Source of the DNA: Candidatus Bipolaricaulota bacterium
GTDB lineage: Bacteria; Bipolaricaulota; Bipolaricaulia; M55B111
Direction of reading: 5' to 3'
Assembly: GCA_018335015.1 (NCBI GenBank)
Contig: JAGXKX010000001.1
Coordinates: 54,028 to 118,027, forward strand
DNA length: 64,000 nucleotides
Position 1 is the first letter of the stretch; every line of letters begins with the position of its first letter. A program made the position numbers and the translations under genes. Below, in pieces: positions 9,612 to 41,849 of the stretch. The notes under the pieces were generated by a model. That model saw only the letters and a program-made list of their open reading frames with translations, made no database searches and was not told the origin of the DNA.

Positions 9612-9807
9612 CAACTCTTTCACCACTCCCGTAATTAATCGCTCGTTCGAAAAATCCCCCTCCCGCTTACCTGGCAACTGATTTAACTTTAAGAAATTGA
9701 ACATACCCTAAATCCCGGCAGCCAGGTAAGCGGGGAGGGGGTCCTTGAGAAAATAGAGTCATTATTTATGCATTTCGTCTAGGTTAAATACAATGGTGAA
9801 AGAATTG
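9612..9807. repeat. MITE-like element copy A (196 bp): 13-bp TIRs plus internal long hairpin
   Basis: The left TIR is CAACTCTTTCACC (9612-9624) and the right TIR is GGTGAAAGAATTG (9795-9807). The internal hairpin spans 9656-9741 (CCCCCTCCCGC-TTACCTGGC ... GCCAGGTAA-GCGGGGAGGGGG). It sits between the convergent hlyIII and rnz genes. Confidence 0.7.
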
Positions 9808-9837
9808 AGTACAACTGGAACCCAAAATTGAGAGCGA

Positions 9838-10695
9838 TCAGTCTTCGCGATAGATCCTGCCGGGCGAGACCAATTCTACTTCAAACGGAGGGTCTTCCGA
9901 GTCCATGATTTCTACTTTAAGTTCCTGTATTCTGTCTTTGTATCGGGAGGAAATATGAAAGCCCAGAAATTTCTTTTCCACTCCCGCCTCCTTGCCCACC
10001 TTTATGGCTTCCTCTAAAGTGGCATGTTTGTACATTTTTCTATCCTCTTCTTCAAGGAAAGTGCAGTCGTGGCATAGAACCTCCGTACCTTCAATCTTCT
10101 TCGGATCCAGGGGCACGGAATCGCCACCGTAAGTAAATATCTTCTGTCTGTAAGTTTCCATCAGTCCTTCTCGCCCTTCTCGTTCAGCTATTTCCCTTAT
10201 CTCCTCCTGAGAATAATCGCTATACTCGTCCTTCAAACGCTGGCGTTCTTCGATGATATTATACCCGAGCGATACTTCGCTCCGGGAGTGTTCGGTGGAG
10301 AAAGCACTGACGAACCGAGGATTCCGCGAGCCGTCCTCACCATAAACCTGAACCTCCTCGTCCGGCTCAATCGGTACCCAGTTGAGTGGGTACTTTACGT
10401 TATTATTGGTTCTGCTGAGATAATTTATCAATTCGGAAATATGAAAATTGTTTCGGGGGTAGTAAATATTCAACGGCTTTTTCTTGTCTCCCATAGCGTT
10501 GTTTCTTATGTTGACAAGACTCACAAGGCCCGCTATATGATCCGTGTGGCCGTGCGAGAGAAAAACGTTTTGGACTGCAAATGTTTTATTCCCCATAATA
10601 CTGCTCACGCTTTCCCCCGCATCAAAAAGAATCCTGTCCGGGCTGTAGTAGAGCCAGCTGGAATAAAGAGCCTTGGAATAGGCGAGTATTTTCAT
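9838..10695 (-). CDS. rnz: ribonuclease Z-like metallo-beta-lactamase-fold hydrolase
   Basis: The HxHxDH motif (SHGHTDH) and a C-terminal tRNase Z-like motif (HATLEEAIKVGKEAGVEKKFLGFHISSRY) are present. Confidence 0.55.
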   Translation of the reverse strand: MKILAYSKALYSSWLYYSPDRILFDAGESVSSIMGNKTFAVQNVFLSHGHTDHIAGLVSLVNIRNNAMGDKKKPLNIYYPRNNFHISELINYLSRTNNNVKYPLNWVPIEPDEEVQVYGEDGSRNPRFVSAFSTEHSRSEVSLGYNIIEERQRLKDEYSDYSQEEIREIAEREGREGLMETYRQKIFTYGGDSVPLDPKKIEGTEVLCHDCTFLEEEDRKMYKHATLEEAIKVGKEAGVEKKFLGFHISSRYKDRIQELKVEIMDSEDPPFEVELVSPGRIYRED

Positions 10696-10705
10696 TTAGC
10701 GACCA

Positions 10706-11533
10706 TTAATCTTGAGCGTTAAAACCTCTCAGAAAGGCATCGATATTCCTTCCCAGATCATCACCAACGTATCCTCCTTCCAGGACGCCGAAAGCAGGGA
10801 TGCCCACCTCCCTCAACATATTTCCGATTTCTTTGAAAGCAGAAGTAGAGAGGCCAACTGAGGCCAGCGGGTCATCCTTGTGGCCGTCAAATCCAGCTGA
10901 TAGTGCCAGCTGTTCGAGCTCCTTTTCGCGCAATCGCTGGAGTTCCTCGTTCAGTAAATCAAGATACTTTTCGTCTCCTATAGTAGCCGAAACCGGGTGA
11001 TTAATAGCGTTCTGATGGGATTCGCGGCCCGTTCCTGGAAAGCCGGGCGAGCGATGCAGGGAAAGGTACGTAACGCCTTCTTTTCCGAGAAAGATGTCCT
11101 CCGTTCCATTGCCGTGATGGGCGTCAAAATCAACTATTAAGGTCTTCAATCCTGATTTCTCAACCGCTATAGCTAGGTTGTTAAAGTAACAAAAACCCCC
11201 GAGAAAGTTACGTCCGGCGTGATGGCCGGGAGGCCTCATAATAGACAAAGCTCCGGATTCCTGAGCGGTAATTGCTCCTCCCGCTGAAAGAGTTGCGTAA
11301 AAGAATAAATCTTCATATTTGGGACAATCAGGGTCCGAGAACCTGCCCTCTTTGACCCTCTGGACGAAATCTTCGTCGTGGACTAAAAGTAGGTCGTCAT
11401 TTGAGGCCTGAACCGGTTCCTTAACATCGTATTTATCCTTTAAATAATTATGCGCTTTCTTAACTCGGTCGGGGCTTTCGGGATGCCCGGCCGAGCGGTA
11501 CTGCAAGGCTTCTTCTGAAAATACTAAATCCAT
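10706..11533 (-). CDS. histone deacetylase-family amidohydrolase (AcuC/AphA-like)
   Basis: HDAC active-site motifs are present (PPGHHAGRNFLGGFCYFNN, DFDAHHGNGTEDIF). Confidence 0.75.
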   Translation of the reverse strand: MDLVFSEEALQYRSAGHPESPDRVKKAHNYLKDKYDVKEPVQASNDDLLLVHDEDFVQRVKEGRFSDPDCPKYEDLFFYATLSAGGAITAQESGALSIMRPPGHHAGRNFLGGFCYFNNLAIAVEKSGLKTLIVDFDAHHGNGTEDIFLGKEGVTYLSLHRSPGFPGTGRESHQNAINHPVSATIGDEKYLDLLNEELQRLREKELEQLALSAGFDGHKDDPLASVGLSTSAFKEIGNMLREVGIPAFGVLEGGYVGDDLGRNIDAFLRGFNAQD

Positions 11534-11608
11534 GATCCTCCTTTTTTAGTGGAGTTTTTCGGCGGACGTAATCCGGAAAGATCAAAGAATGCCGGCTGTA
11601 GCGGGAAC

Positions 11609-12118
11609 TCAACCAGTCCGGTGCATCTCCTCTTCCATCTCCACGTAGTCCCCGTACTCCTCCTGGACCTTTTCCATGTGCTGCTCTATTTGTTCGTGTC
11701 GTTTTCTCAGATCTTCGGGTATTTCTTTATTACTCGAATCCAGGTAATTGTAAATGGCTTCCACTAAACCGTCGGCAGCCAGGTTGGAGCAGTGCATTTT
11801 AACCGAAGGCAAACCATCCAGCTCCTCCGCAACCTTCTCGTTGGTTATTTCCAGGGCTTTTTCGAGCGTCTCCCCTTTCGCCAGTTCCGTTACCATTGAA
11901 GACGTAGCTATTGCTGCCGTACAGCCGAAGGTTTCCCAGGAAATATCCTCGATAATTTCTTTCCCTACCTCGTTCTCACCTACTTCTACATAAATCCACA
12001 TTACGTCCCCGCAGAGCGCGTTACCTACTTTGCCGATCGCGTCGGGATCTTCCATCTTCCTCTGGTTCTGAGGGTTATTGAAGTGTTCCATTACTTTTTC
12101 TGAATACACTATGACCAC
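11609..12118 (-). CDS. iscU: Fe-S cluster scaffold IscU/NifU-like with acidic C-terminal extension
   Basis: The N-terminus reads YSEKVMEHFNNPQN, and the protein has LCGDVM and FGCTAAIATS cysteine motifs. It lies downstream of iscS. Confidence 0.8.
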   Translation of the reverse strand: MVIVYSEKVMEHFNNPQNQRKMEDPDAIGKVGNALCGDVMWIYVEVGENEVGKEIIEDISWETFGCTAAIATSSMVTELAKGETLEKALEITNEKVAEELDGLPSVKMHCSNLAADGLVEAIYNYLDSSNKEIPEDLRKRHEQIEQHMEKVQEEYGDYVEMEEEMHRTG

Positions 12119-12138
12119 CTCAAAGCAGTCTTTCTGGG

Positions 12139-13290
12139 TTAGTTTGACAGGGGGGAGGCCCGCCTTAACTCATCTACGACTTCCGGAAGTTCCTCCAGCA
12201 GGTACTCCACGTCTTCTTCCTGCGTTTCCCTGCCCAGAGTAATTCTCAAACTACCATGGGCAAGAGAAAGAGGGAGTCCTATGGAAAGAAGTACGTGACT
12301 CGGTTCGAGGCTCGGGGAGGAACACGCAGACCCGGTGCTGGCCGCTATATTTCGATTATCCAGCTTCATCACTATAGATTCCCCTTCTATTCCCTTGAAG
12401 CTAAAGTTGGCGTTATTAGCAAGTCTATTTTCATCAGGTCCGTTCAGCCTCGCATCGGGTATCTTAAGAACATTCTCGATGATTTTTTCCCTCAACGCCC
12501 TTTCGCGGGGGATTTCTTCCCCCTGTTCTTCAGCCATTAGTTCTGTAGCAGCAGCCAGTCCCACTATTCCAGGAACGTTTTCGGTTCCACTTCTCAGTCC
12601 TTTTTCGTGCCCCCCTCCGTGCAATAATGGCTCCAGCTTAACTCCTTTCCGGCGATAGAGAAATCCCACTCCTTTTGGTCCATAAATTTTATGGCCCGAC
12701 GCGGATAGCAAATCGACGTTTTCCAGATCGAGTGGAAACTTACCGAAAGACTGGACTGCATCCGTGTGGAACAAAGCTCCACTTTCAGCAGCAATCTCAG
12801 CAAGGTTTTCAATCGGCTCAATCGTCCCAATTTCGTTGTTTGCGTACATAATCGAGACGAGCGCCGTGTCATCGCGGATGGCGTTTTCCAGATCTTCCGG
12901 CTTGACTCGTCCAAGCTCGTCGACTTCGAGGAAAGTTACGTCGTGTCCCCGATCCTCCAGCCATTCGAAGGCATGAAGAACGGCGTGATGTTCTATCTCT
13001 GTGGTAATAAAATGAGCGGACTCATCCCGCGAAAGAGCGACACCTTTAATCGCAAGATTATCGGATTCTGTGGCACCTGACGTAAAAATAATCTCTTCCT
13101 GTTTCACGCCAAGGTAGTCGGAAATCTTATCCCTACTCCGTTCCAGCCCCTCTTTCCTCGCCGTATTCGCGGCCGAATATAGACTGGAAGGGTTCCCGAA
13201 CTTGTCCCGAAAAAAAGCTGACATCTCTTCCCTTACGGATTTGGCGACTGGAGTCGTAGCTGCGTTATCCAAATAGACTAGTTCGTTCAT
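12139..13290 (-). CDS. iscS: cysteine desulfurase (IscS/NifS, class V aminotransferase)
   Basis: The PLP-lysine SGHKIYGPKGVGFLY and the active-site Cys region STGSACSS are present. Confidence 0.85.
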   Translation of the reverse strand: MNELVYLDNAATTPVAKSVREEMSAFFRDKFGNPSSLYSAANTARKEGLERSRDKISDYLGVKQEEIIFTSGATESDNLAIKGVALSRDESAHFITTEIEHHAVLHAFEWLEDRGHDVTFLEVDELGRVKPEDLENAIRDDTALVSIMYANNEIGTIEPIENLAEIAAESGALFHTDAVQSFGKFPLDLENVDLLSASGHKIYGPKGVGFLYRRKGVKLEPLLHGGGHEKGLRSGTENVPGIVGLAAATELMAEEQGEEIPRERALREKIIENVLKIPDARLNGPDENRLANNANFSFKGIEGESIVMKLDNRNIAASTGSACSSPSLEPSHVLLSIGLPLSLAHGSLRITLGRETQEEDVEYLLEELPEVVDELRRASPLSN

Positions 13291-13376
13291 TTCTTACCTC
13301 CTAAAAAACTATACTATTATAGTCCAGTTTTATCAATACACGCCGAGTCCAGTCAAGTTCTCGATAAGAATATCTC

Positions 13377-13405
13377 TTGAGGGAAATTACTGCTTCTTTT
13401 ATAAT
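13377..13405 (+). promoter_or_regulatory. sigma70-like promoter of tRNA-Ala(CGC): -35 TTGAGG, 17-nt spacer, -10 TATAAT
   Basis: TTGAGG is at 13377-13382 and a perfect TATAAT is at 13400-13405. The tRNA 5' end lies 14 nt downstream of the -10 box. Confidence 0.55.
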
Positions 13406-13418
13406 AGCTTTGTCTTAC

Positions 13419-13494
13419 GGGGATGTAGCTCAGTCGGGAGAGCGCCGCGTTCGCAACGCGGAGGTCGGCGGTTCGAGTCCGCTCATCTCCACCA
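13419..13494 (+). tRNA. tRNA-Ala (anticodon CGC)
   Basis: A 76-nt cloverleaf was folded by hand. The acceptor GGGGATG/CATCTCC has G3:U70, the anticodon loop is TTCGCAA, the T-loop is TTCGAGT, and the 3' CCA is encoded. Coordinates are accurate to about 1 nt. Confidence 0.85.
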
Positions 13495-13498
13495 GAAT

Positions 13499-13768
13499 CT
13501 AAAGTTTTTCGTTTATCTCGTCAATTTTTTCTTCCAGATCTTCCAATTTTTTCTGGACTTCCTGGATAGATTTTAGTGTTTGGGGGTCAGGGCCTGATCC
13601 TCCGCCCATTCCTCCGCCCATACCACCCATCTGGCTCATAATTTGTCCCAGTCCGCCCATTCCTCCGCCCATACCACCTGACATCTCTTCCATCTTCTCC
13701 TCTAATTCCTTCTCCCTTGACTCTCTAGTCTCGTCTTTTTCTTCGTTCTTTTCCTCTTCTTCGTTCAT
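13499..13768 (-). CDS. small acidic coiled-coil protein with central Gly/Met-rich (GGMGG) repeats, hypothetical
   Basis: It is an 89-aa ORF with a strong SD (GGAGGT) 6 nt upstream of the ATG. The low-complexity core reads MSGGMGGGMGGLGQIMSQMGGMGGGMGGG. Confidence 0.45.
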   Translation of the reverse strand: MNEEEEKNEEKDETRESREKELEEKMEEMSGGMGGGMGGLGQIMSQMGGMGGGMGGGSGPDPQTLKSIQEVQKKLEDLEEKIDEINEKL

Positions 13769-13851
13769 GTATTTACCTCCAGTTGTTGAATGTAATTAAA
13801 ATTAAGATATTTAGACCTAACAATGCAACAGCAAACCGCGTGCCGAGGAGA

Positions 13852-14880
13852 TTACGCCTCCCAGCCAGTGCCCTCGCCAGGTAACGGACAGGAAGAGTTA
13901 AGCGCGGTTTCTGCTATGTTGTTTCCGTACTCTTTCACTCTTTCTATGCTATCGGAAACTATCCCCAGCAACTGGGCCGTTTGAGGGTCGAGTTTCCTGA
14001 GCGACTTGTCAAGATCGAACAGGTTTTCCTCTATAACCTCTCCCTGTGCCAGCGCTTCATTTGCCAGCTCGATGTCTCGCTGGGTAAGTGATTTTACGGA
14101 TTTATCAACTATCGATAGAGCTTCTACGGCCGTGGCGTTAAATGCTTCTCTGACTTCTTCTGGCAGGTCTTCTTCCAGTGCCGGAGAAATGCTGGCTATC
14201 TTCTTGGCATGATCCGCTATCCTCTCCAGCTGCTTGGCCGCCGTCTGGTAATCGAAGTAGCGTGCCCTGTTTACCTCTTTTCCGTTTCGCTCAACTATGG
14301 TATATAGCATAACCCTGAACCTTCGGGATAGAGCAAGGTAAAGTCTATCCACGTCGTCGTCCCTGTCCTCCACGTCCCTGGCAAGTTCGTGGTTGCTTTC
14401 AACCATAGCGTGCACTGAGTCTTCAAACATAGTGCGAGATATCTGATATATTCTCGATAGGGTCTCGTTTATTGACAGTTCGGAGAGATCCGAGAGATTG
14501 CGGATTATTATCTGATTTGAAGATTCCTCAACTATTTCGGGACCAATGAGAGACTGGGTGGTCTTTCTAATAGTGCCTCTCTGTTCAGAAGTTATTTGCT
14601 CCCCTTCGATTTTGATAACTTCATAACCCGCTATATAGAGAGAAATAATGCTCCTGGTTAGTACTGCACCTTCTCTATCTCCTATTTCCAGCTTACCAAC
14701 CTTGTCTTCCTCGTCCAGTTGCGTCTGGGGCTGAAGGACCATTGTATTCGGCTTTATACTCACCATATTGACTTCAGTTCCTGGCTCCAGGCCGATTCCT
14801 TCGGCCCACGCCTTGGGCAGCGTTACCATAAAGGTCGAACCACCGGTAATCTGGACCTTCCTACTATACATATTTTTCAC
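13852..14880 (-). CDS. AbrB/SpoVT-PhoU fusion regulator (phosphate uptake regulator PhoU family)
   Basis: An N-terminal SpoVT/AbrB swapped-hairpin domain (VQITGGSTFMVTLPKAWAEGIGL) is followed by tandem PhoU-like helical domains. Confidence 0.7.
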   Translation of the reverse strand: MKNMYSRKVQITGGSTFMVTLPKAWAEGIGLEPGTEVNMVSIKPNTMVLQPQTQLDEEDKVGKLEIGDREGAVLTRSIISLYIAGYEVIKIEGEQITSEQRGTIRKTTQSLIGPEIVEESSNQIIIRNLSDLSELSINETLSRIYQISRTMFEDSVHAMVESNHELARDVEDRDDDVDRLYLALSRRFRVMLYTIVERNGKEVNRARYFDYQTAAKQLERIADHAKKIASISPALEEDLPEEVREAFNATAVEALSIVDKSVKSLTQRDIELANEALAQGEVIEENLFDLDKSLRKLDPQTAQLLGIVSDSIERVKEYGNNIAETALNSSCPLPGEGTGWEA

Positions 14881-15071
14881 CTCTTAAAGTACTTAGTAAG
14901 GAGGAGGTCTAATATTTATTTTACTCTAGTATGTATATCAATATAGAAAAATTATACTAATATACATAACCCGTTACCAGGGTACGAGCGGAGATTGGAA
15001 ATAAGAACTCTTGAAGACTCGTTAGAATACCCTGAAGGGCAAAATTTACCAACTTAACCGGAATCGAACCC

Positions 15072-15102
15072 GTTTCCGCTTGACGGAAACTTGGCCTTTT
15101 CT
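15072..15102 (+). terminator. orphan intrinsic terminator-like hairpin plus T-tract (candidate sRNA end or leader attenuator)
   Basis: The stem GTTTCCG/CGGAAAC encloses a cttga loop and is followed by ttggccttttct. No plus-strand CDS lies upstream, because phoU is on the minus strand. Confidence 0.35.
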
Positions 15103-15131
15103 GTAAACTAGAAGAACTATTATTACTATAG

Positions 15132-15278
15132 AATCGAAAAAAGGGGGATAAAGTGCCAAAGTCCCAGCACGTTAAACCACCAAAACACCTGACTATAGTT
15201 TTTCTGGTGGCCTATCTTCTTATCTTTCTGGTTATTCCCAGCTTTGCGGCCGAAGATTATCTGGTGGTAGAGACATAA
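15132..15278 (+). other. disrupted 5' region of the PKD-protein gene: signal-peptide-like coding segment followed by an in-frame TAA
   Basis: In the same frame as the downstream PKD ORF it encodes ..HPKHLTIVFLVAYLLIFLVIPSFAAEDYLVVET, then TAA at 15276-15278. A GTG at 15152 with a GGGGG SD lies one frame off, upstream of the C/A run at 15176-15185. Confidence 0.5.
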
Positions 15279-15374
15279 GGGAGCAAGTCAGGCCTCTCCA
15301 GACTGGAGTACTTTCGAGGTAACATACCCGCCAGCGATTTTTACAACTACTACAAATTAAGACCTAATACCGGA

Positions 15375-17294: not shown

Positions 17295-17297
17295 CTT

Positions 17298-18428: not shown

Positions 18429-18550
18429 GGTAGTTTATTTTAGAAAAATTCTGGGATTTGTAAATACCCTGGCCCAGCTGAACCGAAGTTTACACTTCCC
18501 TCTGACCTGAAACGTTATCGGCTAGATTGAGCTTAGTTTTTACCACCTCC

Positions 18551-18750
18551 CAGTTCTTTCACCATCGTCGAACGTCATTATTTTGTCCTCATGTGCCTCT
18601 TACCCCTTACCTGGCAACTGATTTAACCTTAAAATCCTACCAGTAGACGAAATCCCGGCAGCCAGGTAAGGGGCAAGAGGCCTGAACTGAAGATATAGTT
18701 ATCGCAATATGAGATACCACTCGCTTACGAATAGTGATGAAGGAACTGGG
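18551..18750. repeat. MITE-like element copy B (200 bp)
   Basis: The TIRs are CAGTTCTTTCACC (18551-18563) and GTGATGAAGGAACTGGG (18734-18750). The hairpin spans 18596-18680 (CCTCTTACCCC-TTACCTGGC ... GCCAGGTAA-GGGGCAAGAGG). It sits in the divergent pld/wecB promoter region. Confidence 0.7.
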
Positions 18751-26477: not shown

Positions 26478-27536
26478 TTGAAAGGAGTCTTCCTCTGTGC
26501 CGGTAAAGGTACGAGAATGCGTCCTATAAGCTACTCGACCCCAAAACATCTCATTCCGCTGGCGAACAAGCCAATCCTGCAGTATAACGTTGAAAAAGTC
26601 ATCGATGCCGGGATAACGGAAGTCGGACTCGTAGTTTCTCCCGATATGGAATCCCTTTATCGAGAAACGCTTGGGACCTCAAAGTGGGGTGCATCGATAA
26701 CTTACATCCACCAGGAGGATCCAAAAGGGCTCGCCCACGCTGTTGCCTGTGCCCGGGATTTCGTCGGAGATGATTCATTTCTTGTCTATCTCGGAGACAA
26801 CCTATTACACTCCGGCCTTACGGGGATGGTCAGTAATTTCGAGGAAGAAGAGCCAGCTGCTTCCATTCTGCTCGCCTCGGTCGATGATCCTGAAAGATTC
26901 GGAGTTGCCGAAATCGAGGATGGAAAAGTCGTGGACCTGGTTGAGAAACCGGACAGTCCTCCCAGCGATCTGGCGATCGTGGGGGCCTATCTTTTTAACC
27001 AGGAGATATTCCCGGCAATTGAGCAGATAGAACCTTCCGACCGGGGAGAATTGGAGATAACGGACGCGATCGCCCACCTGATAACCGAGGGAAGGAACGT
27101 GACTCCGTCCGAGCTCGGGGGCTGGTGGCTTGACGTAGGTCGACCCTCGGACGCACTGGAGGCCAACCGGGTTCTACTCGGAGAGGTAGATGGCTCCATC
27201 AAAGGAGAAATTCGGGATTCGCAGCTAAAGAACCGCCCGGAAATTGTCACAGCAGAAAGTAGCCGTATCGAAAATAGCGAGATAAAAGGACCGGTTCACG
27301 TTGCAGAGGGAGCTCGCATCGTCGATTCCACCCTCGGACCTCACGTTTCGGTCGGAGAGGACGTGGAAGTAAGCGATGCCGAGGTAGAGAACTCGATCAT
27401 CATGGTCGAAGCCAGGATAGAGGAAATCGAATTGACCGGATCTCTGATCGGAGCGAAGGCCGAAATAAAGTTACCCGGCAACCAAATAAAGACCATCGTC
27501 GGCAATCAAGCTAAAATTGTAGACGAACTGGCCTAA
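26478..27536 (+). CDS. sugar-1-phosphate nucleotidyltransferase with C-terminal left-handed beta-helix (glucose-1-phosphate thymidylyltransferase / GlmU-like)
   Basis: A TTG start was chosen at Leu34 of the track ORF 26379..27536. The motifs LCAGKGTRMRPISYSTPKHL and LGDN are present, and the C-terminus has hexapeptide repeats. Confidence 0.65.
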   Translation: MKGVFLCAGKGTRMRPISYSTPKHLIPLANKPILQYNVEKVIDAGITEVGLVVSPDMESLYRETLGTSKWGASITYIHQEDPKGLAHAVACARDFVGDDSFLVYLGDNLLHSGLTGMVSNFEEEEPAASILLASVDDPERFGVAEIEDGKVVDLVEKPDSPPSDLAIVGAYLFNQEIFPAIEQIEPSDRGELEITDAIAHLITEGRNVTPSELGGWWLDVGRPSDALEANRVLLGEVDGSIKGEIRDSQLKNRPEIVTAESSRIENSEIKGPVHVAEGARIVDSTLGPHVSVGEDVEVSDAEVENSIIMVEARIEEIELTGSLIGAKAEIKLPGNQIKTIVGNQAKIVDELA

Positions 27537-28420
27537 TGCCAGCCCCATTTAGAAAGCCACTTTGTTTTGAATTTCGCTATGGGATATTTTCCAAAGCTAG
27601 CAGCCCGTGTTCCCCGGTAAGTACGATTCGACCTTCGGGCTTCCCGGGCCGAGAAATTTCCGACTCGCGTGCTCAAACTATCCTGTTCATGGAAGTGAGT
27701 CCTACTTATGGGAGTACCACCCTTAAACAGTTCGACTCAGGTGGTTATGGAAATATCCCTCCCCAGCACTATCTGAGTATACCCACTCTGGTTTGTACTC
27801 GGAAGATGGGTGTTAATGGCAACCAAAACTGTATTAAATCACCGGCACAAATCCAGTTATCATAACTCAGATAAGTGCTGGTTCGGTCAGACATATGCGC
27901 CGCGTCGCTGGAATTTTCTCGGACCGGAACCCTCCACGAAATAAAGTCGAAAAGGTTAGTGGTTATGAAATGATATATTGGTTGTAATACATAGAGTTCT
28001 CTGGTGATTGTTCAGGAAAATCCTATCGGAGGCCGAGCGGGCACGGTTCCATGCTTTCGGAGAAAGCATGGGGAGCGAGGCCGAGATCGGAAGCAGTGAA
28101 TTCCACGCAGGGGAATTCACCTACGGTTTTATCGAACAATTACCAGAGAACAACGTGAGATACTTTCTATATAAAGAATACAAAGCAGGGCGATCTTCCA
28201 TCCTCGGCCGATTTGGCTAGCGAAACCAGGCAAATTATTTGCCGAGGAAGTCTTGGGCCTTCCATAATAAGCTCCTGCCGGGCAGGGGGCTAGTCAATTA
28301 CCCCCCCTTCCGGGCAAGCATGTAGAAAAACCCTTTATAACTAACAGCTAAGTACTTAAAAAAAGCGAGACCCAGCAGTCAACAAGGCCGGAAACGCTGA
28401 TCAGGGAAGTATAAGGCGGG

Positions 28421-28496
28421 TGGTGGAGCCGACGGGATTCGAACCCGTGACCTCGTGGATGCCGACCACGCGCTCTCCCGACTGAGCTACGGCCCC
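28421..28496 (-). tRNA. tRNA-Ala (anticodon GGC)
   Basis: The minus-strand 76-nt cloverleaf has acceptor GGGGCCG/CGGCTCC with G3:U70, anticodon loop TCGGCAT (position 33 is C, which is unusual), T-loop TTCGAAT and an encoded CCA. Confidence 0.8.
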
Positions 28497-28537: not shown

Positions 28538-28882
28538 GGATGTCTGAGTGCTCTCTTCACTGAAAATCAGTTGACTAAACCCTCCAATTGTCCTATACTG
28601 ATTAAAAATCAAGAATAAGGTGATAACTATGAATTTTGGTGATCGGGTTTGGCTCGGTTAAAAACAACCACCCTCTAAACTTTTCCAGTCCTTCCTTGTC
28701 CGGTACTTCAGCTGGACATTTTCTTCCAATGCTGTCTGTTTACTTAAAACTACCGTCTTTCTTTCCAGAACAGCTGGAACCTGCCTGGCAACTTTAGTAA
28801 TTCTCACTCAGTAACCAGTACTCTCATTTAGCCTTTATCAATTACTTTAAATTTATTAACTCAACCTTATAGGAGGTTTATC

Positions 28883-30280: not shown

Positions 30281-30310
30281 GACCGCGGAGAACTCTCCGC
30301 GGTCTTTTTA
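30281..30310 (+). terminator. intrinsic terminator of the trpB2-like gene
   Basis: The stem GACCGCGGAG/CTCCGCGGTC encloses an aact loop and is followed by TTTTTA. Confidence 0.7.
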
Positions 30311-30313
30311 TCC

Positions 30314-30410
30314 CAGCCCTTTCACCAGCGGCGGATTTAGTTGTCTTGCCCGAATGGCTGCTCTTCGCCCCTTACCTGGCTGCCGGATTTCGTCTACTGG
30401 TAGGATTTTG
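30314..30410. repeat. MITE-like element copy C (5' half; internal core in inverted orientation; 3' part missing)
   Basis: The left TIR is CAGCCCTTTCACC (30314-30326). Its flank resembles copy D. The core TTACCTGGCTGCCGGATTTCGTCTACTGGTAGGATTTT is the reverse complement of the core in copies B, D and F. Confidence 0.6.
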
Positions 30411-30554
30411 AGTTTATTTTGCCTCCTCTCATTTGAACGTAACCACCCACCGGTTATAATTCATAAAGGTTTACAAAAATCGGAAAACAACCGGATATAA
30501 TCCCCATTACGGGAGGTAGTACCAATCTCACTAAACGAGCTCACGTTACACGAA

Positions 30555-32979: not shown

Positions 32980-33015
32980 TCATTTTGACGCTTTTCCCGG
33001 CAGGATATTAAAACT

Positions 33016-33165
33016 CAGATCTTTCACCAACGACAGATTTAGCTATCTGGTTCGGATAACTGCTCTCTACCCCTTAGCTGGCAACTGATTTAACCTTCAA
33101 ATCCTACCAGTAGACGAAATCCGGCAGCCAGGTAAGGGGTAGAGAGCCAGTAGTGAAAAAATGAA
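33016..33165. repeat. MITE-like element copy D
   Basis: The left TIR is CAGATCTTTCACC (33016-33028). The hairpin spans 33063-33146 (CTCTCTACCCC-TTAGCTGGC ... GCCAGGTAA-GGGGTAGAGAG, with a perfectly complementary outer stem). The right end AGTAGTGAAAAAATGA is degenerate. It abuts the 3' end of rnpB. Confidence 0.65.
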
Positions 33166-33217
33166 AACAATACTCACAATTAAGTCTCGCTTTCATGCGC
33201 CGGTATAAGAACTGAAT

Positions 33218-33560
33218 AAAAAAGACGAAGGGGAAGTTAAGCCGGATCCTGTGTTAGGAAGCCATCTATCTCAGCAGCCTACCCGAAGGTTACGGGAGCG
33301 GGCAGCTCCATACCTCCCTATTTGGCTTTACTCCGGTTGGGGTTTACCCTGCCTTCCGCCTCACGGCTGAAGCGGTGAGCTCTTACCTCACCGTTGCACC
33401 CTCTCCCAGCACTCAATTAAGTGCTGGGTGGTCTATTTTCTGTGGCACTTTCCAGCCGTCGCCGGCTCTGGTCTTCGGCAGTGAAACATCGACCAGCAAC
33501 CTGCCCTGCGGAGTCCGGACTTTCCTCGGCCGTAAGGCCGCGGCTTCCTCTTCCCCTTCG
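33218..33560 (-). ncRNA. rnpB: RNase P RNA (type A)
   Basis: The minus-strand transcript contains GAGGAAAGUCCGGACUCCGCAGGGCAGG (P4), ACAGAAAAUAGACCACC, GGUAAGAGCUCACCG, GGUAAACCCCAACCGGAGUAAAGCCAAAUAGGG, GGGUAGGCUGCUGAGA and ACAGGAUCCGGCUUAAC. The P1 helix is formed by GUCGAAGGGGAAG and CUUCCCCUUCGUC, followed by UUUUUU. The track ORF 33375..33602 inside it is spurious. Confidence 0.85.
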
Positions 33561-33565
33561 ACCAA

Positions 33566-33594
33566 ATTTTACTCTCCTTTAATTTTCAGTTCAA
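33566..33594 (-). promoter_or_regulatory. sigma70-like promoter of rnpB: -35 TTGAAC, 17-nt spacer, -10 TAAAAT (minus strand)
   Basis: The plus-strand complements are GTTCAA at 33589-33594 and ATTTTA at 33566-33571. The predicted TSS is about 6 nt upstream of P1. Confidence 0.5.
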
Positions 33595-33661
33595 TTGGGT
33601 AATCTTAATTTTGACGAGTCCCGTGAAAAAAGGATATTTTTTACCAGACAAGGAGGTTGAA

Positions 33662-34923: not shown

Positions 34924-35083
34924 TACAACCCCTTTCAGAAACAAAATCGCTTTAGTTCTCAAATATTTCAAGGTTATCGCTTTTTCTCCAGTAGTTAGAG
35001 TTAGCCTTCCTAATCCGGAGACCACTACCACTCGGCTCTTTTACTGATGCCGTGCCAATTCTCCGGTCTTATCTGCTCCGGCG

Positions 35084-35146
35084 CTTGCCTGGCGACTGAT
35101 ACGACCTAAAGGATAGGAGATAGCCAGATTTCGTCAGCCAGCCAAA
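35084..35146. repeat. degenerate relic related to the MITE-like family (copy E)
   Basis: TGCCTGGCGACTGAT resembles the core TACCTGGCAACTGAT. AGCCAGATTTCGTCAGCCAGCC contains GATTTCGTC, the reverse complement of the core GACGAAATC. The similarity is weak. Confidence 0.3.
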
Positions 35147-35294
35147 CGGGGAGTACGGTGATCAAATTATTTTCTGAGAATCGTCGGGAAATTTCAACGT
35201 AAAAACAAATATGAGTGCCCAAACCCGTTTATTGCCTGAAAGTCCCCGTAAAAGTTAGCAAATTAAGGCTTTAACGCCAAATTTACCTGGTCCA

Positions 35295-36761: not shown

Positions 36762-36982
36762 GGTTTTTTGATTATACGGTGTTTTGAGTTATTTCTAGCA
36801 CCTATTTAAAAATCAAACTCAACAGCTTTTTATTCTCCCCGGAACAGGGATTGTCGTGCCTCCTTTCCAATGGGGGCGGGATCTTTACTTGAACCTAAAC
36901 GGTACGAGTGACTCTTTTTACGTTATTCAAGAAGGTGGGGCTTCCGTACACCCTAATAAAAAAGAAAGACCAAATTGTACCG

Positions 36983-38599
36983 TTACCACTTATAAATAGT
37001 ATTCAAAATAACGTCCTGAACACCTTCGTCGGCAGCGAGAACTAGCCCGGTAACTAATTCAAAAGAATTACTTAATCTGTAGCTGGCTTCGCTTGTAAGC
37101 TCGCTAAACCCGAATAAACCGGGATCAGACCCCCAGTAAGCATCCAGGGCCAGCTCTAGATTTCCTCCCCCTCCTTCTAAGGACAGTGCTCCCTCGTAAT
37201 CCGTTTGTCCAAATGCGAACGATCTTTCCTCGTAGGAAAACTCAGCTTCAGTGGTTAGGTCGTAATCGGAGGCACGCAGTCGCCAGTCATCCCGGCCCCT
37301 TAACCGCTGCAATCTATTATTACCAAGGGCCTGAATAAAACTGGCTCTTACGTTGCCTAACTGAATCCCATTAACCCCGTAACCTTTTAAATTTATTCCG
37401 GTTATCTGGCTCTCTTCCTCGGTCAATTCGTTCGGACGCATTTCCGAGTAGACGTCGAAGCAGGCCCATTCCAGGTTTAGTGACGGTTCAAGCGAAAGAG
37501 TTTTCTTCCTAGCGCTATACGTCATCGTACCTTCGAACTCGATGATTCCCGATGACTCTTCGAACCAGAAATCTACCTCGGTCTTTTCATACCCGTCCTC
37601 AGCCGTAAAACTGTTCGCCGTGTCGAGCCGTATCGGTCCGAGCTCGATTCCATTTATTTCCACTTCGCTTCCCGTGTAACCCACGTACCTGCCGTCGGTG
37701 TCAAATACGTCGTAGCCGCTCCCGGGATTATCCCCGACCATCTCTGGAGGGTTAGGCACTAACCCCAGCCTCGTCTTCAGTTCGACGGAAACGCCGCTTA
37801 TTTTCATTCCGGACAGGGCCAGTTCCAGTCCCGCGCCATAGTTGCTGTCAACCCCCAGCTGTTCGGTAAGGGTTTCCTCCGAAATAGATTTAAGTATCTC
37901 TTCTAATGTCTCTGCAGAAATATCCTCGAGCTCCAGGTCAGGATTCTGAAACACGCCCTCCAGCTCAGTCCGTCCCTCGACTGAGATCTTATCTTTAGTC
38001 CCCAAAATGACCTGCTTCGAGACTCCCTTTAAGATAGCCGGGCTGCTCTCGTGTATTTCCTCGGACAGGAAAACGCCGCGGTAGGAGAACCCTCCGTAAT
38101 TAATTATTCCCTTAGTAACCCAGTAGTCCATCTCTTCCTCGCTAAGATAAACCCGGGAACTCCCACCGGCCGTGCCCACAGGATAATCGGGCCCAAAATC
38201 TTCTGCAAAAAAACCATCAAGTTTCAGTTTAAAATCATCCAAACCCGAAGTCGCCGAAATCAGGGGAGCCTCTATGTCCCCGCTCAGCGCGAGCCCAGTA
38301 TCGAAAAGAGTGTTCGTGGTATTTGGCCAGTAAAGAGCAGTAGTCAGTTGACTGGGATAGTCCGTTAGGTTCCCTTCCAGGTAGTCCACCCGGAAATTCG
38401 TTACTGAATTTTCCCCCAGCAAAGACCCCCCTGGGCCCAGCCAAAGTTCAGTGTCGACTTCTCCGTCAATCCTGGCCCGAACCGGCAAAGGGGGCAAGAC
38501 CAGCAGGCCGAGAGCAAAAAGACCAATAAATAATAAAATGTCGATTCTCATTGAGTTAATCGGGTTGACCGAAGGAACCGTTTCACCACATTTATTCAT
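36983..38599 (-). CDS. large exported beta-rich hypothetical protein (last gene of the PadR/ABC operon)
   Basis: It is 538 aa with an N-terminal hydrophobic signal or anchor (IDILLFIGLFALGLLVLPPLPVRA). It overlaps the permease gene by 8 nt. No family was recognised. Confidence 0.5.
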   Translation of the reverse strand: MNKCGETVPSVNPINSMRIDILLFIGLFALGLLVLPPLPVRARIDGEVDTELWLGPGGSLLGENSVTNFRVDYLEGNLTDYPSQLTTALYWPNTTNTLFDTGLALSGDIEAPLISATSGLDDFKLKLDGFFAEDFGPDYPVGTAGGSSRVYLSEEEMDYWVTKGIINYGGFSYRGVFLSEEIHESSPAILKGVSKQVILGTKDKISVEGRTELEGVFQNPDLELEDISAETLEEILKSISEETLTEQLGVDSNYGAGLELALSGMKISGVSVELKTRLGLVPNPPEMVGDNPGSGYDVFDTDGRYVGYTGSEVEINGIELGPIRLDTANSFTAEDGYEKTEVDFWFEESSGIIEFEGTMTYSARKKTLSLEPSLNLEWACFDVYSEMRPNELTEEESQITGINLKGYGVNGIQLGNVRASFIQALGNNRLQRLRGRDDWRLRASDYDLTTEAEFSYEERSFAFGQTDYEGALSLEGGGGNLELALDAYWGSDPGLFGFSELTSEASYRLSNSFELVTGLVLAADEGVQDVILNTIYKW

Positions 38600-39818
38600 A
38601 TCTTAACGCCTCTACTGGCTGAAGCCTGGACGCCTGCCGGGCGGGGAGAACGCCCGAAATCGAGCCGAGAACAAACGAAAAAGCGATCGCACCGATCAAC
38701 AGTCCCGGGCCAAAAGAGGGCGTAAAAGGAGCAGACAGGGCCTGGCTGATGAACCTACCGGCAAGGATACTAAGACCCACCCCTACAAGTGTACCGATGG
38801 CCCCACCAACCAGACCGAGTAGTCCCGATTCCGTCAGAAATAAGCCGAGAATCTGCCCATTTTTTGCCCCCACTGCCTTCATCACTCCTATCTCTCTGGT
38901 CCTTTCCAGAACGGCCGTGTACATAGTATTCATCACTCCAATCCCACCAACCAGCAACGATATCGCGGCAATTCCAGCCAGCGCTATCTGGATCGTTCCC
39001 AGAGCGCTGTTGACTCTGTTACTTATCTCCTCCGTAGTGATCGTGGTAGCAGCTGTATCGTCAGCCGAGTAGGCTCGTTCAATTTCGTCAGCTACCTCGG
39101 AGACTTCTGCGTCTTCGAAAACCTTGGCCAGAATAAGGGAGGCGTTACCTTTGCGTCCGTAAAGATTTTCAAGAGCGGAAAGAGGGATGAATAGCCCGTT
39201 ATTCAGGTCACCGTAAAAATTGAACTGCCCGTCGTTACCCTCTTCGTCCGTACCCAGAAGACCGCTCACGGTAAATTCCTTACCCTCTATCCGTATAATA
39301 TCACCCGGGGATACTCCTAGTTCTCTCGCGATCTCGTCGCCGATCACCACTCCGCTCTCCTCGCTTTCGTAAGAAAACCGTTCTCCTTGAGATATAGGAA
39401 ACCCATCGAAATAGGCCTCAAAATCGGAAAGTACGGCAGGGCTCATCCCCGTTACCCGGAGAAAAGCCTGCCCCTCAAGACCTTCTGAAACTATCTGCAG
39501 ATCCTCGCTCCGAATAGCCGCGGAGGTTTTTACCCCTTCGACTTCGTTTATAACGCTCTTATTTAGATAGGAACTTGTATCGGCGCCGGTATTGCCAAAC
39601 CCGCCCCGCCCGGTATCGAAGTTACCGGGGAGAACAGTAACGGTATTATACCCGACCTTATCGAACTCGTTCAGAATAGAATCCTGGATTCCCTGACCAA
39701 TTGAGATCAGCGTGACGATTGCAGTAACTCCAATTACCACACCCAGGATGGTCAACCACGACCGGAGACTTCTATTCCTGATCGAATGCCAGGACAAACT
39801 TAGATAGTCGAACAACAT
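38592..39818 (-). CDS. ABC transporter permease, FtsX/MacB family with large extracytoplasmic domain
   Basis: It has a MacB-type periplasmic core and a C-terminal FtsX 4-TM region (GVMNTMYTAVLERTREIGVMKAVGA). Confidence 0.8.
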   Translation of the reverse strand: MLFDYLSLSWHSIRNRSLRSWLTILGVVIGVTAIVTLISIGQGIQDSILNEFDKVGYNTVTVLPGNFDTGRGGFGNTGADTSSYLNKSVINEVEGVKTSAAIRSEDLQIVSEGLEGQAFLRVTGMSPAVLSDFEAYFDGFPISQGERFSYESEESGVVIGDEIARELGVSPGDIIRIEGKEFTVSGLLGTDEEGNDGQFNFYGDLNNGLFIPLSALENLYGRKGNASLILAKVFEDAEVSEVADEIERAYSADDTAATTITTEEISNRVNSALGTIQIALAGIAAISLLVGGIGVMNTMYTAVLERTREIGVMKAVGAKNGQILGLFLTESGLLGLVGGAIGTLVGVGLSILAGRFISQALSAPFTPSFGPGLLIGAIAFSFVLGSISGVLPARQASRLQPVEALRYE

Positions 39819-40519
39819 TAATTGTCCCCCTCGTTTTCCTTACCGTTTTTAATTTTCCCGTCAATCATGTTCACTATCCTGACGGCGTATTCCGCGTCTC
39901 TAGGGTTGTGAGTGACTACTACGATCGTGGTTCCTCGGTTTCTATTTAAACCCTTGATTAACTCCATTATATCCTTACCCGTCTCCGAATCGAGATTTCC
40001 CGTCGGTTCGTCCGCAAGCAGGATATCTGGGTCGTTTATCAGGGCCCGGGCAATTGAAACCCGCTGTTGTTCTCCTCCGGATAGCTCAGCCGGCTTATGA
40101 GTAAGCCGGTCGCTCAGTCCGACCATTTCAAGGAGTTCGGCAGCTCGTTCCTCCCTTTCCGATTTTCCTATACCTTGAAAGGTAAGGGGGAGGGCCACGT
40201 TGTCCAGACTCGAGAGGGTATGGATCAAATTGAAGGTCTGAAAGACGAAACCCACCTTATTGCCACGTAGTTCTGCGAGTTCGTTTTCGTCGTAATCGGA
40301 TATGTCCTTTCCGTCCAGCAGCACCCGGCCCTGGTCCGGAATGTCCAGGGCGCCAATTATGTGCATTAACGTGCTTTTACCGGAACCGGAAGGCCCAACT
40401 ATCCCGACAAACTCTCCGTTATTGATCTTGAGGTCCAGGCCACGTAAAGCCCGGACTGTAGTTTCGCCCATAATGTATTTCTTGGCGACGTTCTGTAACT
40501 CTACCATTGGTTCTTTCAT
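39818..40519 (-). CDS. ABC transporter ATP-binding protein (LolD/MacB-type)
   Basis: Walker A (GPSGSGKST), the ABC signature ([15 protein letters not shown]) and Walker B ([11 protein letters not shown]) are present. Confidence 0.9.
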
Positions 40520-40521
40520 AT

Positions 40522-41163
40522 TTAGGGTTGGTAGCTAAATTCCACCAGTTCTATTCTAGTCTCGACTTCGCCGTTTTTCAGTAATTCAAAGAAAGTGGGG
40601 AAGAGTAGCAGGTCCCTCGTCTCCCTGTCGGCAAGTGCAAGCCGTGCCCGCTGATTGGGGTAGTTGGAATGAGTAAAAACCCCGGTCACGACGTCCACTC
40701 CGGCTATATTATCTTCTTCCTGAGCAACTAGCCTGCCCCCATCGGGCAATCGTATTGGTTGATTGGGCTTTATCTCGATGTTTCTCTCGTCAATCGTGGA
40801 TAGGGGGCTGAGGTCCATGGTTGGATAGCCTCCCTCATCGTAACGTGACCCCCCGGCACTAGCACCCCCGCTTGCCCCAAAAGCCGTTGAGACCTCCTCC
40901 CGCGCTCGACCCGGGCTGGAAACCTTCTCCGTCACATCGTAGGAATCCCCGGAGGGTTCAACCTTGATAGTGTACTCCCGTGGAGGAGCATCGCTACTTG
41001 GCTCGCTGATATGAAACACCGCCCTCAGAGTACCTCCAGGGTACTCTCCCATGCCAAATATTCCCGCGGCCGCGCTTACCCGGAATAAAGTAACTAACAT
41101 AAGTACGCTCAAACCAACCAGCATCACGGCAGATAATCTTCCATCCTCTGTAAATGATTTCAT
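40522..41163 (-). CDS. membrane-anchored hypothetical protein
   Basis: It is 213 aa with an N-terminal TM segment. It sits between the PadR and ABC genes. There is no recognisable domain. Confidence 0.45.
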   Translation of the reverse strand: MKSFTEDGRLSAVMLVGLSVLMLVTLFRVSAAAGIFGMGEYPGGTLRAVFHISEPSSDAPPREYTIKVEPSGDSYDVTEKVSSPGRAREEVSTAFGASGGASAGGSRYDEGGYPTMDLSPLSTIDERNIEIKPNQPIRLPDGGRLVAQEEDNIAGVDVVTGVFTHSNYPNQRARLALADRETRDLLLFPTFFELLKNGEVETRIELVEFSYQP

Positions 41164-41181
41164 CCTTACCCCCCATAATTA

Positions 41182-41577
41182 TTAATCAAAAAACTCTTCC
41201 CCGATCTCTTCCAGCAGAACTTCGAATTCTTCCTTGCCCGCGAGAAACCTGTATATGTACATCAAACCCAGAATTTGGTCCACCGGGTTTATTTCCTCCT
41301 CGCACTTACCCCTTAGCCTTTCAAGCTCTTCGCGGCCCTCCCCGGTAAGGCCGTAATACTGTCGACTACTATCCTCGTCATCCTCATCCAGGTCCACTTC
41401 TTCGATCCACCCCTCTCCCTCCAACCTCTCCAGGGCACCGTAAACAGTCCCTTGGCCGGGTTGTAAATAACCCTCGGACTCGTCTTCAATCTTCTGAATC
41501 AGCTCGTAGCCGTAACGCGGCTGGTCCTCCATAAGCGAGAACAACAGGAACTTCAAGAATCCGTGTGTCTTTCGCAA
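41182..41577 (-). CDS. PadR-family transcriptional regulator
   Basis: The PadR wHTH motif is FLKFLLFSLMEDQPRYGYELIQKIE ... GTVYGALERLEGEGWI. I start it at TTG (41577), preceded by GGAGAGGAG. The longer track ORF starting at 41721 would run through the promoter and the MITE. Confidence 0.6.
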   Translation of the reverse strand: MRKTHGFLKFLLFSLMEDQPRYGYELIQKIEDESEGYLQPGQGTVYGALERLEGEGWIEEVDLDEDDEDSSRQYYGLTGEGREELERLRGKCEEEINPVDQILGLMYIYRFLAGKEEFEVLLEEIGEEFFD

Positions 41578-41606
41578 ATCGACTCCTCTCCGGTTTATGT
41601 TACGTA

Positions 41607-41640
41607 ACGTAATATTACGTTCTGTAAAAGATAAGGTCAA
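41607..41640 (-). promoter_or_regulatory. putative PadR promoter and operator: -35 TTGACC, 17-nt spacer, -10 TAATAT overlapping a 14-bp perfect palindrome ACGTAATATTACGT
   Basis: The palindrome is at 41607-41620, flanked by TTACGTAA. The plus-strand complements GGTCAA (41635-41640) and ATATTA (41612-41617) form the promoter on the minus strand. Confidence 0.45.
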
Positions 41641-41654
41641 TATCTTCTTTGTCT

Positions 41655-41849
41655 CAGTTCTTTCACCATCCCCGTACATCATTGGTTTGTCCTCCTGTGC
41701 CTCCTGCCTATTACCTGGCAACTGATTTAACCTTAAAATGCTACCAGTAGACGAAATCCGGCAGCCAGGTAATAGGCAGGAGGCTTGAACTAAAAATATT
41801 GTGATTCCTCCCGACCTTCACCTTACTCCGAATAGTGGTGAAAGAACTG
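41655..41849. repeat. MITE-like element copy F (195 bp)
   Basis: The TIRs are CAGTTCTTTCACC (41655-41667) and GTGGTGAAAGAACTG (41835-41849). The hairpin spans 41701-41783 (CTCCTGCCTA-TTACCTGGC ... GCCAGGTAA-TAGGCAGGAG, with a perfectly complementary outer stem). Confidence 0.7.

Follow-up and report, generated by a model that had tools for sequence, protein, structure and literature searches.

A stretch of 64,000 nucleotides from the genome of a Candidatus Bipolaricaulota bacterium (contig JAGXKX010000001.1 of assembly GCA_018335015.1, positions 54,028 to 118,027), hereafter the window, was analysed for a short repeat found between its genes. The repeat was identified as a genuine MITE (a miniature transposable element with inverted repeats), since it is shorter than the limit of about 500 bp for such elements, has no coding capacity, is bounded by terminal inverted repeats (TIRs), produces target-site duplications (TSDs) and shows insertion polymorphism with an intact empty site.

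Copies of the element and their layout

Repeats in the window were called by repeat detection (families D1-D3 and inverted pairs I2-I4) and by direct reading of the sequence at the positions concerned, which bore out the six copies proposed in the initial annotation. The core motifs had 4 and 5 occurrences, compared with 0.00 and 0.02 expected from dinucleotide shuffles, while the TIR 14-mer (up to two mismatches) appeared 13 times, compared with 0.4 expected by shuffling. Moreover, a covariance model built from the hairpin (R1), in which the 4-bp inner helix is offset by one column with no harm to searching, recovered all six copies, among them the partial one (30378-30423) and the degenerate one, which scored 31.8 bits at 35066-35163 (E about 1e-6).

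The MITE is non-coding and about 200 bp long, with full-length elements of 192-206 bp. Its TIRs comprise 16 bp (CTCAGTTCTTTCACCA / TGGTGAAAGAACTGAG) rather than the 13 bp first described, with 0-3 mismatches in 26 elements. A full-length alignment of 21 copies gave the following order: TIR, left flank of about 30 nt, 20-bp arm, loop of 45-48 nt, 20-bp arm, right flank of about 50 nt and TIR. Along its entire length, the element folds back on itself as single-stranded DNA in a long imperfect fold-back. No open reading frame (ORF) beyond chance was found in it, the sole overlapping ORF being an over-extended TTG start of the PadR gene. All copies were confirmed to be intergenic; the neighbouring genes are ordinary housekeeping genes, separated by convergent, divergent or tandem spacers, and the copies appeared in both orientations. 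Three full-length copies had been counted originally, but four are present, as the one placed at 33016-33165 really extends over 33014-33216 and ends in a decayed right TIR. The features of the family in the window are as follows.

9610..9809, + strand: MITE copy 1, full length (200 bp), standard arrangement; TIRs CCCAACTCTTTCACCA (left) and TGGTGAAAGAATTGAG (right); flanking 5-mers TCCAA/TACAA (4/5 match); between convergent HlyIII-like and metallo-beta-lactamase-fold genes
9656..9741, + strand: central hairpin of copy 1; 5′ arm CCCCCTCCCGCTTACCTGGC; bulge from one extra G in the 3′ arm
18549..18750, + strand: MITE copy 2, full length (202 bp), standard arrangement; flanking 5-mers CACCT/CTCCT (4/5 match); between divergent PLD-like and UDP-GlcNAc 2-epimerase genes
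18595..18681, + strand: central hairpin of copy 2; one A·C mismatch on the + strand
30312..30416, + strand: MITE copy 3, truncated; left TIR CCCAGCCCTTTCACCA, short left flank, 5′ arm and inverted loop retained; 3′ arm, long flank and right TIR absent; between PALP and amidase genes, directly after a terminator-like hairpin (30283-30309)
33014..33216, + strand: MITE copy 4, full length (203 bp); right TIR decayed (GGTATAAGAACTGAA); exact 5-bp TSD TAAAA at 33009-33013 and 33217-33221; inserted 5 nt past the 3′ end of rnpB (33222-33560, - strand)
33062..33147, + strand: central hairpin of copy 4; outer stem perfect, inner stem with one G·G mismatch
35031..35163, + strand: MITE copy 5, degenerate; left TIR decayed (CTCGGCTCTTTTACT), 11/20 stem pairs, right flank deleted; between VCA0040-like and MatE genes
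41653..41851, + strand: MITE copy 6, full length (199 bp), left TIR perfect; between divergent PadR and HAD-hydrolase genes
41699..41784, + strand: central hairpin of copy 6; perfect 21-bp stem, -47.8 kcal/mol as RNA, z = -7.7
49447..49484, no strand assigned: possible relic, uncertain; TIR-to-TIR-like palindrome GTCATTTCTTTCTCCATGGTGGGAGAAAGAAAGAATTAG, resembling a left TIR joined straight to a right TIR

The palindrome at 49447-49484 may be a deletion relic. It lies 55 nt upstream of a tyrosine recombinase gene, and in the metagenome-assembled genome (MAG) CAZYPS the same spacer (L026:115-215; L numbers designate related loci throughout) has a hairpin copy with decayed TIRs. In another region, 28540-28810, the hairpin loop is partially matched by two short strings separated by about 220 bp, namely AAATCAGTTGAC at 28564 (- strand) and CCTGCCTGGCAACT at 28781 (+ strand), with TIR-like strings nearby. 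It may be a heavily degraded copy; the R1 model made no detection there, and the weak match reported near 28785, which was not recovered by it at E ≤ 1, is unsupported.

Insertion polymorphism and distribution among genomes

The TSD was 5 bp long, with a few that look like 4 bp. The flanking 5-mers were identical in 7 of the 26 TIR-bounded elements and matched at four of five positions in 5 more, whereas mismatched left/right pairs, used as controls, gave 0.6% and 4%, respectively. The targets were A/T-rich (TAAAA, TTAAA, TTAGA, ATCAA, TGGAA and TTGGG). Orthologous regions were then retrieved via the neighbouring MatE gene, and the site at rnpB was found empty in L050, which reads tga-TAAAA-aagaagggg with a single TAAAA, compared with TAAAA, the 203-bp element, TAAAA and aagacgaagggg in the window. 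L051 also lacked copy 4 at rnpB, copy 6 was absent from the PadR/HAD spacer in both L047 and L050, and reciprocally L026 (CAZYPS) and L050 (CAZRDU) had copies at sites that are empty in the window. Overall, a syntenic block of 21 kb presented four copies in the window, one each in L047 and L050 and none in L051, three of the four window copies being absent from the sister species. This distribution therefore points to recent activity of the MITE in the window lineage.

The initial annotation had proposed a search of related genomes for additional copies, insertion polymorphism and TSDs, and all of them were found. It had also raised the alternative that the copies belong to larger duplicated segments, which was ruled out because sequence homology stops at the TIRs.

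An exact gapped pattern taken from the loop, with 22 loop positions fixed, was scanned over one genome per GTDB species. A total of 39 loci were obtained, 36 of which (37 matches) came from five MAGs (JBDGQU, JAGXLB, CAZYPS, JAIPHJ and JAIPHN), while the remaining 3 were discarded as chance matches. Four of these MAGs are labelled Bipolaricaulota or Bipolaricaulia; CAZYPS is labelled ‘Thermotogae’, yet it is syntenic with the window at 81% nucleotide identity. The covariance model identified 46 distinct copies in 297 kb, and three more in loci fetched later, for a total of about 49 copies; these came from five Bipolaricaulota MAGs that each represent a species, two additional MAG loci with synteny, and a single metagenome contig. 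Among JGI metagenome contigs, one of five matches was true, and the hairpin pattern had no match in the viral contigs of IMG/VR. The TIR 16-mer matched viral contigs 71 times, and all these matches were dismissed, as they fell in one coincidental prophage gene without an inverted partner. The MITE is specific to a group of Candidatus Bipolaricaulota.

Scanning the window with Rfam 15 at gathering scores returned only rnpB and two tRNAs, with no family for the MITE, and an E-value scan of one copy gave only generic miRNA-hairpin matches (37 bits vs. a gathering score of 90). No record of the MITE motifs or of Bipolaricaulota MITEs was found in the literature, and a large RefSeq census of MITEs does not mention the phylum (PMC11602168). 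Considering its TIRs, 5-bp TSDs, empty sites, presence in multiple genomes, lack of coding capacity and absence from the literature and Rfam searched, the family is real and apparently undescribed.

At close range, the window was collinear with GCA_018335315.1 and GCA_036628535.1, with an identity of 99.7-99.9%; the former is a Bipolaricaulota MAG in which one protein of the window is encoded without any difference. Two single-nucleotide polymorphisms (SNPs) separate its rnpB from that of GCA_036628535.1, 33286 A>G and 33289 G>A, which are 3 nt apart, with only two other differences in the 6-kb alignment. Among more distant loci, the orthologous copies of L010 and L019 each have a loop resembling the subfamily of their own genome. 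L013 and L003 were rejected as an orthologous pair, being two independent insertions 66 bp apart and in opposite orientation.

A relationship with the RNase P RNA was also considered. The R1 model matched the P12 helix of rnpB in L047 (L047:13446-13540, cf. window 33400-33435) with 33 bits, and the P12 extension in L047 starts with CTTACCTGGCA and ends with GCCAGGTAAG, like the inner stem of the MITE. P12 is hypervariable among relatives, the length of rnpB being 339 nt in the window, 383 nt in L047, 418 nt in L050 and 424 nt in L051. An origin of the MITE from the RNase P RNA, or its insertion into it, was rejected, given that the loop similarity was reached by 100 of 300 shuffles and that CTTAC/GTAAG is native to P12 in L050 and L051.

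Furthermore, a second short element with the same TIRs, 270 bp long, was found at L023:418-687 and also at the end of L028 (L028:6781-6833); its interior is unrelated and contains two small G/C-rich hairpins. The TIRs would therefore define a transposase specificity, and a single specificity seems to move more than one passenger. Derivatives of about 105 bp were present at L018:358-459 and L037:925-1032, which retain the left flank, the 5′ arm, the beginning of the loop and the two TIRs but lack the 3′ arm, and the deletion junctions differed between the two.

Maintenance of the hairpin stem and inversion of the loop

Folded as single copies, the hairpins reached -44 to -54 kcal/mol (z = -5.7 to -7.7 compared to shuffles), both strands folding equally well. 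Base pairs were counted in 45 copies on a structure made up of the 20-bp stem and two helices, of 3 bp and 4 bp, the latter in its correct register. Standard pairs occupied 94.2% of the cells, compared with 85.1% for shuffled partners and 32-50% for partners slid by 1-3 columns. Moreover, 107 cells showed double changes, compared with 26.6 in the shuffles and 13-25 in the slid controls, and 14 pairs had changes on both sides. As paired cells and double changes far exceed both controls, the complementarity of the stem is actively maintained, in agreement with what had first been noticed. The outer stems had been described as completely different between copies; instead, they were point variants of one consensus (CCCTCTGCCGC), compensated on the opposite arm. 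The G-U-compatible change attributed to copy 2 is correct for the - strand (G·U), while on the + strand it is an A·C mismatch.

Between subfamilies, the loop-proximal core (TTACCTGGCAACTGATTTAACCTTA ... AAATCCCGGCAGCCAGGTAA) and the TIRs were conserved, while the flanks went down to roughly half identity. In the per-column identity profile, TTACC/GGTAA, AACCTTA and AAATCC, which the search pattern did not fix, were as conserved as the TIRs, and the flanks were far more variable. A conserved asymmetric internal loop was also present, together with a 4-bp GAUU/AAUC inner helix bearing one compensated change (L036b).

Individual insertions, on the other hand, are not protected and decay once inserted. 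Decayed single copies were found at window 35066-35163, L050:3525-3625, L006:5409-5509 and L015:561-659, and in these bystander copies, not picked by the search pattern, the decay of the hairpin paralleled that of the TIRs. In addition, the copy at L010:3197-3298 had a 9-nt tandem duplication in its 3′ arm (GCCAGGTAA GCCAGGTAA), with three outer-stem pairs lost, while the orthologous copy in L019 was nearly perfect. The contrast first drawn with simple copy decay thus holds for the family, but not for single insertions such as the first three listed.

Such a stem might belong to a structured RNA, either a small RNA or a REP-like cis-regulatory or mRNA-stabilising stem-loop, under selection at the RNA level, with the MITE as a mere vehicle. 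The high stability of the hairpins, their covarying stems and the conserved asymmetric internal loop with its GAUU/AAUC helix agree with this explanation. However, the single mismatches in the 20-bp stem of the 45 copies were G·T in 23 cases and A·C in 24, which disfavours an RNA made from one strand, because in an RNA G·U would be accepted and A·C removed. Both strands also fold equally well, at least six copies have a loop turned around with respect to their flanks, and insertions in both orientations are found between convergent, divergent and tandem genes. Moreover, neither a sigma-70-like promoter nor an intrinsic terminator was found inside the element in scans of three copies, Rfam has no family for it, and single copies decay. 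A promoter-like arrangement seen by eye (TTACCT-17-TA(t/a)AAT) was discarded, as it was not called by the scanner and the invariance of its spacer speaks against a simple promoter. The mismatch symmetry, the flipped loops, the varied orientation and the lack of a promoter or terminator consensus therefore disfavour RNA-level selection on one strand; a structured RNA is very improbable, and the behaviour of the hairpin is most likely a matter of DNA rather than RNA. Accordingly, where the initial annotation saw the hairpin under selection, be it as RNA or as a cruciform, the maintained complementarity stands, while the step from it to such selection is not supported as stated, in view of these same points and of template switching, which predicts the same pattern.

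Inverted loops were found in several copies. Relative to its asymmetric flanks, the loop was inverted in L041, L028, L037, L024 and the window copy at 30312, and less clearly in L036b; in these copies, aligning a flank with the reverse complement of the opposite flank raised the score two- to threefold, although the loops themselves matched in the same orientation. By eye, inverted loops were also seen in L044 and L047:11617-11717. Between the two copies L021a and L021b, the flanks are collinear with 77% identity, whereas the hairpins have to be reverse-complemented to match, which they then do at 90%. Furthermore, L047 carries a better-preserved copy in the same intergenic region as window copy 5, with the opposite loop orientation and the same flank polarity, which suggests that a loop was flipped in place, common descent of both insertions being unproven.

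The compensated pair types, tallied by pair-type columns, comprised about 11 of the transition type and about 12 of the transversion type. Transversion-type double changes (G-C to C-G, C-G to A-U) pass without a wobble intermediate. For example, a change from A-T to C-G separates the close relatives window copy 6 and L015, and one from C-G to A-T separates the copies of L004 and L027; the latter are orthologous copies in two species, on which selection for transposition cannot act. Both kinds of observation have a counterpart in template switching within inverted repeats, which homogenises the arms and inverts the spacer (PMC5941160 and PMC8604942).

The reading preferred here, to which a probability of roughly 0.7 is given, is a selfish non-autonomous DNA transposon, a MITE whose arms interact at the DNA level and whose loop-proximal core is constrained at the level of the family. 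A DDE-type transposase, encoded at another place in the genome and binding the TIRs, would move the element in trans by cut-and-paste. Its two 20-bp arms would interact through replication template switching or intramolecular recombination, in such a way that a change in one arm would be copied onto the other, giving apparent compensatory substitutions in one step, and the 45-48-nt spacer would occasionally be inverted. Lineages of active copies would also be constrained in the TIRs and in the loop-proximal core, the latter probably acting in cis as a site for the transposase or a host DNA-binding factor, or as a structural site. Both arm exchange and constraint are proposed because the arms drift in some copies and because homogenisation cannot keep a loop core that is not palindromic.

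Several results weigh against this reading. In line with the initial annotation, no transposase was present among the 40 window ORFs scanned with Pfam, and neither a TIR pair 0.7-4 kb apart nor a multi-copy ORF, as expected of an autonomous partner, was found in the window and about 450 kb of related loci; the class of the transposase is thus deduced from the TIRs and TSDs only, because no autonomous element was found there. Among three same-species assemblies, gaplessly collinear with the window and with one loop SNP only, no loop flip was detected, so that flipping is rare on this time-scale. In addition, most copies were found with the pattern that fixes 22 loop positions, and the conservation of those positions is partly due to ascertainment. 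The arms also drift, with five transition mismatches in L047:11617-11717 and only 11/20 pairs in window copy 5; homogenisation is thus not fast in all copies, and therefore selection among active copies may outweigh template switching. Finally, template switching does not explain the conservation of the non-palindromic loop core, which probably reflects a protein-binding or structural site.

In a rival explanation, the same MITE has its stem kept mainly by natural selection on a cis-acting DNA structure, and the compensations are two independent mutations fixed in active master copies. The structure could be an extruded cruciform or lagging-strand hairpin joining the two TIRs, or one bound by the transposase or a host factor. 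Consistent with this, conservation across subfamilies with diverged flanks is highest in the TIRs and in the core of the hairpin, the arms drift in the apparently dead copies (L047:11617-11717 and window copy 5), as selection at the level of the element predicts, and the fold-back of the whole element pairs the TIRs. Nevertheless, two independent hits would hardly yield so many double changes of the transversion type at an overall divergence that is modest, the derivatives L018:358-459 and L037:925-1032 keep both TIRs without the 3′ arm, and the repeated loop inversions show that the arms recombine. Selection on DNA structure as the main cause is possible but rather unlikely. More doubtful still is the proposal that the loop-proximal core is a functional cis-acting DNA module whose orientation can be switched by arm-to-arm exchange. 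Such a module could be a hairpin, cruciform or protein-binding site needed for propagation, or one taken over by the host; if so, the family would be a mobile structural signal capable of flipping, not inert fold-back DNA.

The hairpin was also seen in another backbone of about 223 bp without recognisable TIRs (L021:1534-1756, L021:~6003-6220 and partly L031:1290-1440). This backbone has a second small covarying hairpin (CCGAGC-GTGGGA-GCTCGG / GGGGC-ATGGGA-GCCCC). The sole recombinase found in the window is a 207-aa protein (49537-50160) with only the catalytic Phage_integrase domain (PF00589, 1e-34); this tyrosine recombinase is approximately of the size of FimB/FimE and is kept at the same locus in CAZYPS.

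An explanation that builds on such cases is that the hairpin alone is the mobile or functional unit within several backbones, either as an end of the IS200/IS605 type, as a palindrome of the REP/BIME kind that a RAYT mobilises, or as a switch that a site-specific recombinase inverts. The second backbone, about a dozen copies with undetectable TIRs, and the FimB-sized recombinase gene, which in CAZYPS has a copy directly upstream of it, are in line with this. On inspection, however, most of the copies taken to lack TIRs (L019, L026, L038b and L030, for example) showed decayed flanks or TIRs of the MITE, and the limits of homology and the TSDs coincide with the TIRs rather than with the hairpin. 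Moreover, the hairpin, at 85 nt, is far larger than a REP, GTAG is not conserved although some loops have it, the 40 scanned window ORFs include no HUH or RAYT gene, and a single orientation was present among the same-species assemblies. Altogether, a unit consisting of the hairpin alone is extremely unlikely.

Three particular systems were considered in this respect. Invertons combine the coexistence of both orientations in a population with a promoter on the invertible segment and an invertase gene nearby. In invertase systems, a spacer of 45-48 bp is too short for recombinase synapsis in cis, and an inverton is unlikely here given this spacer, the lack of a promoter consensus and the single orientation in the three same-species assemblies (at the level of assemblies). 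Elements derived from IS200/IS605 have subterminal hairpins and neither TIRs nor TSDs; such a derivation was rejected, as TIRs and 5-bp TSDs are present and the hairpin is central, not subterminal. Integron attC sites are formed by R''/L''-L'/R' cores (RYYYAAC ... GTTRRRY) and appear in cassette arrays beside intI. They were rejected as well, since the copies are scattered singly between housekeeping genes and their stems (TTACCTGGC/GCCAGGTAA) have no GTTRRRY core.

Other features of the window, significance and comparison with known systems

Apart from the MITE, a conserved non-coding block of about 60 nt (GGGYTCCGGKCCGAGAAAATTCCAGCGA...) was observed at 27866-27933 (- strand), just downstream of a 109-aa ORF (27536-27865). 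It is common to L004:3650-3702, L027, L034:2600-2904 and L041:7720-7995, from other MAGs, and a hairpin copy adjoins it in L004 and L027. The spacer at 27866-28420 contains several further stem-loops without an Rfam match. Next to it, the tRNA-Ala(GGC) at 28421-28496 (- strand) gave a sub-threshold match to the Rfam tmRNA model (42.1 bits vs. a gathering score of 47), restricted to the ends of the model. ARAGORN called no tmRNA, and the tRNA-like domain is the probable source of the match. Finally, TCCGCCCATTCCTCCGCCCATACCACC, a short repeat in tandem or direct arrangement, was found at 13589-13678, in a small ORF (13499-13768) adjoining tRNA-Ala(CGC).

With the present results, a candidate phylum for which only MAGs are known gains a MITE family that is well defined by its TIR, TSD, subfamilies and empty sites, and recent transposition is shown there by the syntenic block. 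The element is a practical marker for strain typing and a possible cause of assembly problems in MAGs, although no assembly break at a copy was shown. Furthermore, about 50 related inverted repeats of 20 bp constitute a natural data set in which ‘compensatory’ substitutions and spacer inversions can be studied jointly. They also call for caution, as covariation in a repeat hairpin is by itself no sign of a functional RNA.

The family was compared with bacterial MITEs in general (reviewed in PMC10969869, PMC3184786 and PMC2229807). Like these, it is about 200 bp long, non-coding, intergenic, bounded by TIRs, flanked by TSDs, present in many copies, able to fold back and presumably mobilised in trans by the transposase of an insertion sequence (IS). 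In contrast to the recorded MITEs, the present sequence family is unrecorded and its cognate IS was not found in the loci searched.

With respect to particular families, the Correia/NEMIS elements of Neisseria are likewise bounded by TIRs, fold into a hairpin over the whole length and abound in intergenic regions. Correia elements measure 100-155 bp, have 26-bp TIRs, a TA duplication and an IHF site, are RNase III substrates and are often co-transcribed. The present MITE differs by its 16-bp TIRs, 5-bp TSD, unrelated sequence and distinct central hairpin with a large, conserved and asymmetric loop. ERIC/IRU and RUP/BOX are also imperfect palindromic intergenic repeats of 100-200 bp, with size variants arising from internal deletions or insertions (cf. 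PMC3049150). Their sequences and hosts are different, and ERIC has no clear TSD. To our knowledge, inversion of the spacer from copy to copy is not among the features noted for these families. The REP/BIME repeats share with the hairpin the extragenic palindrome, a G/C-rich stem, the occurrence in both orientations and the mosaics. A REP is 20-40 nt long, has a conserved 5′ GTAG, lacks TIRs and TSDs, and is found clustered around a RAYT gene. The hairpin described here differs in being 85 nt long, in that GTAG is not conserved across subfamilies, in the presence of TIRs and TSDs, and in that no HUH gene occurs among the scanned ORFs of the window.

As for the behaviour of the arms, a close parallel is quasipalindrome correction, in which arms are made identical by one-step copying of any type of mutation, without strand asymmetry and with an occasional inversion of the spacer (PMC5941160, PMC8604942 and PMC7202029). 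Descriptions of that process concern short inverted repeats of E. coli, yeast and primates, not the core of a MITE family, and the process does not explain the conservation of the non-palindromic loop. Recurrent loop inversion combined with a strongly conserved asymmetric loop is uncommon, and by itself gives no indication of a new mechanism. In kind, the element is a bacterial MITE like Correia/NEMIS, ERIC, RUP and Nezha, and a member of none of them, as the sequence and length of its TIRs, its TSD and its host are different.

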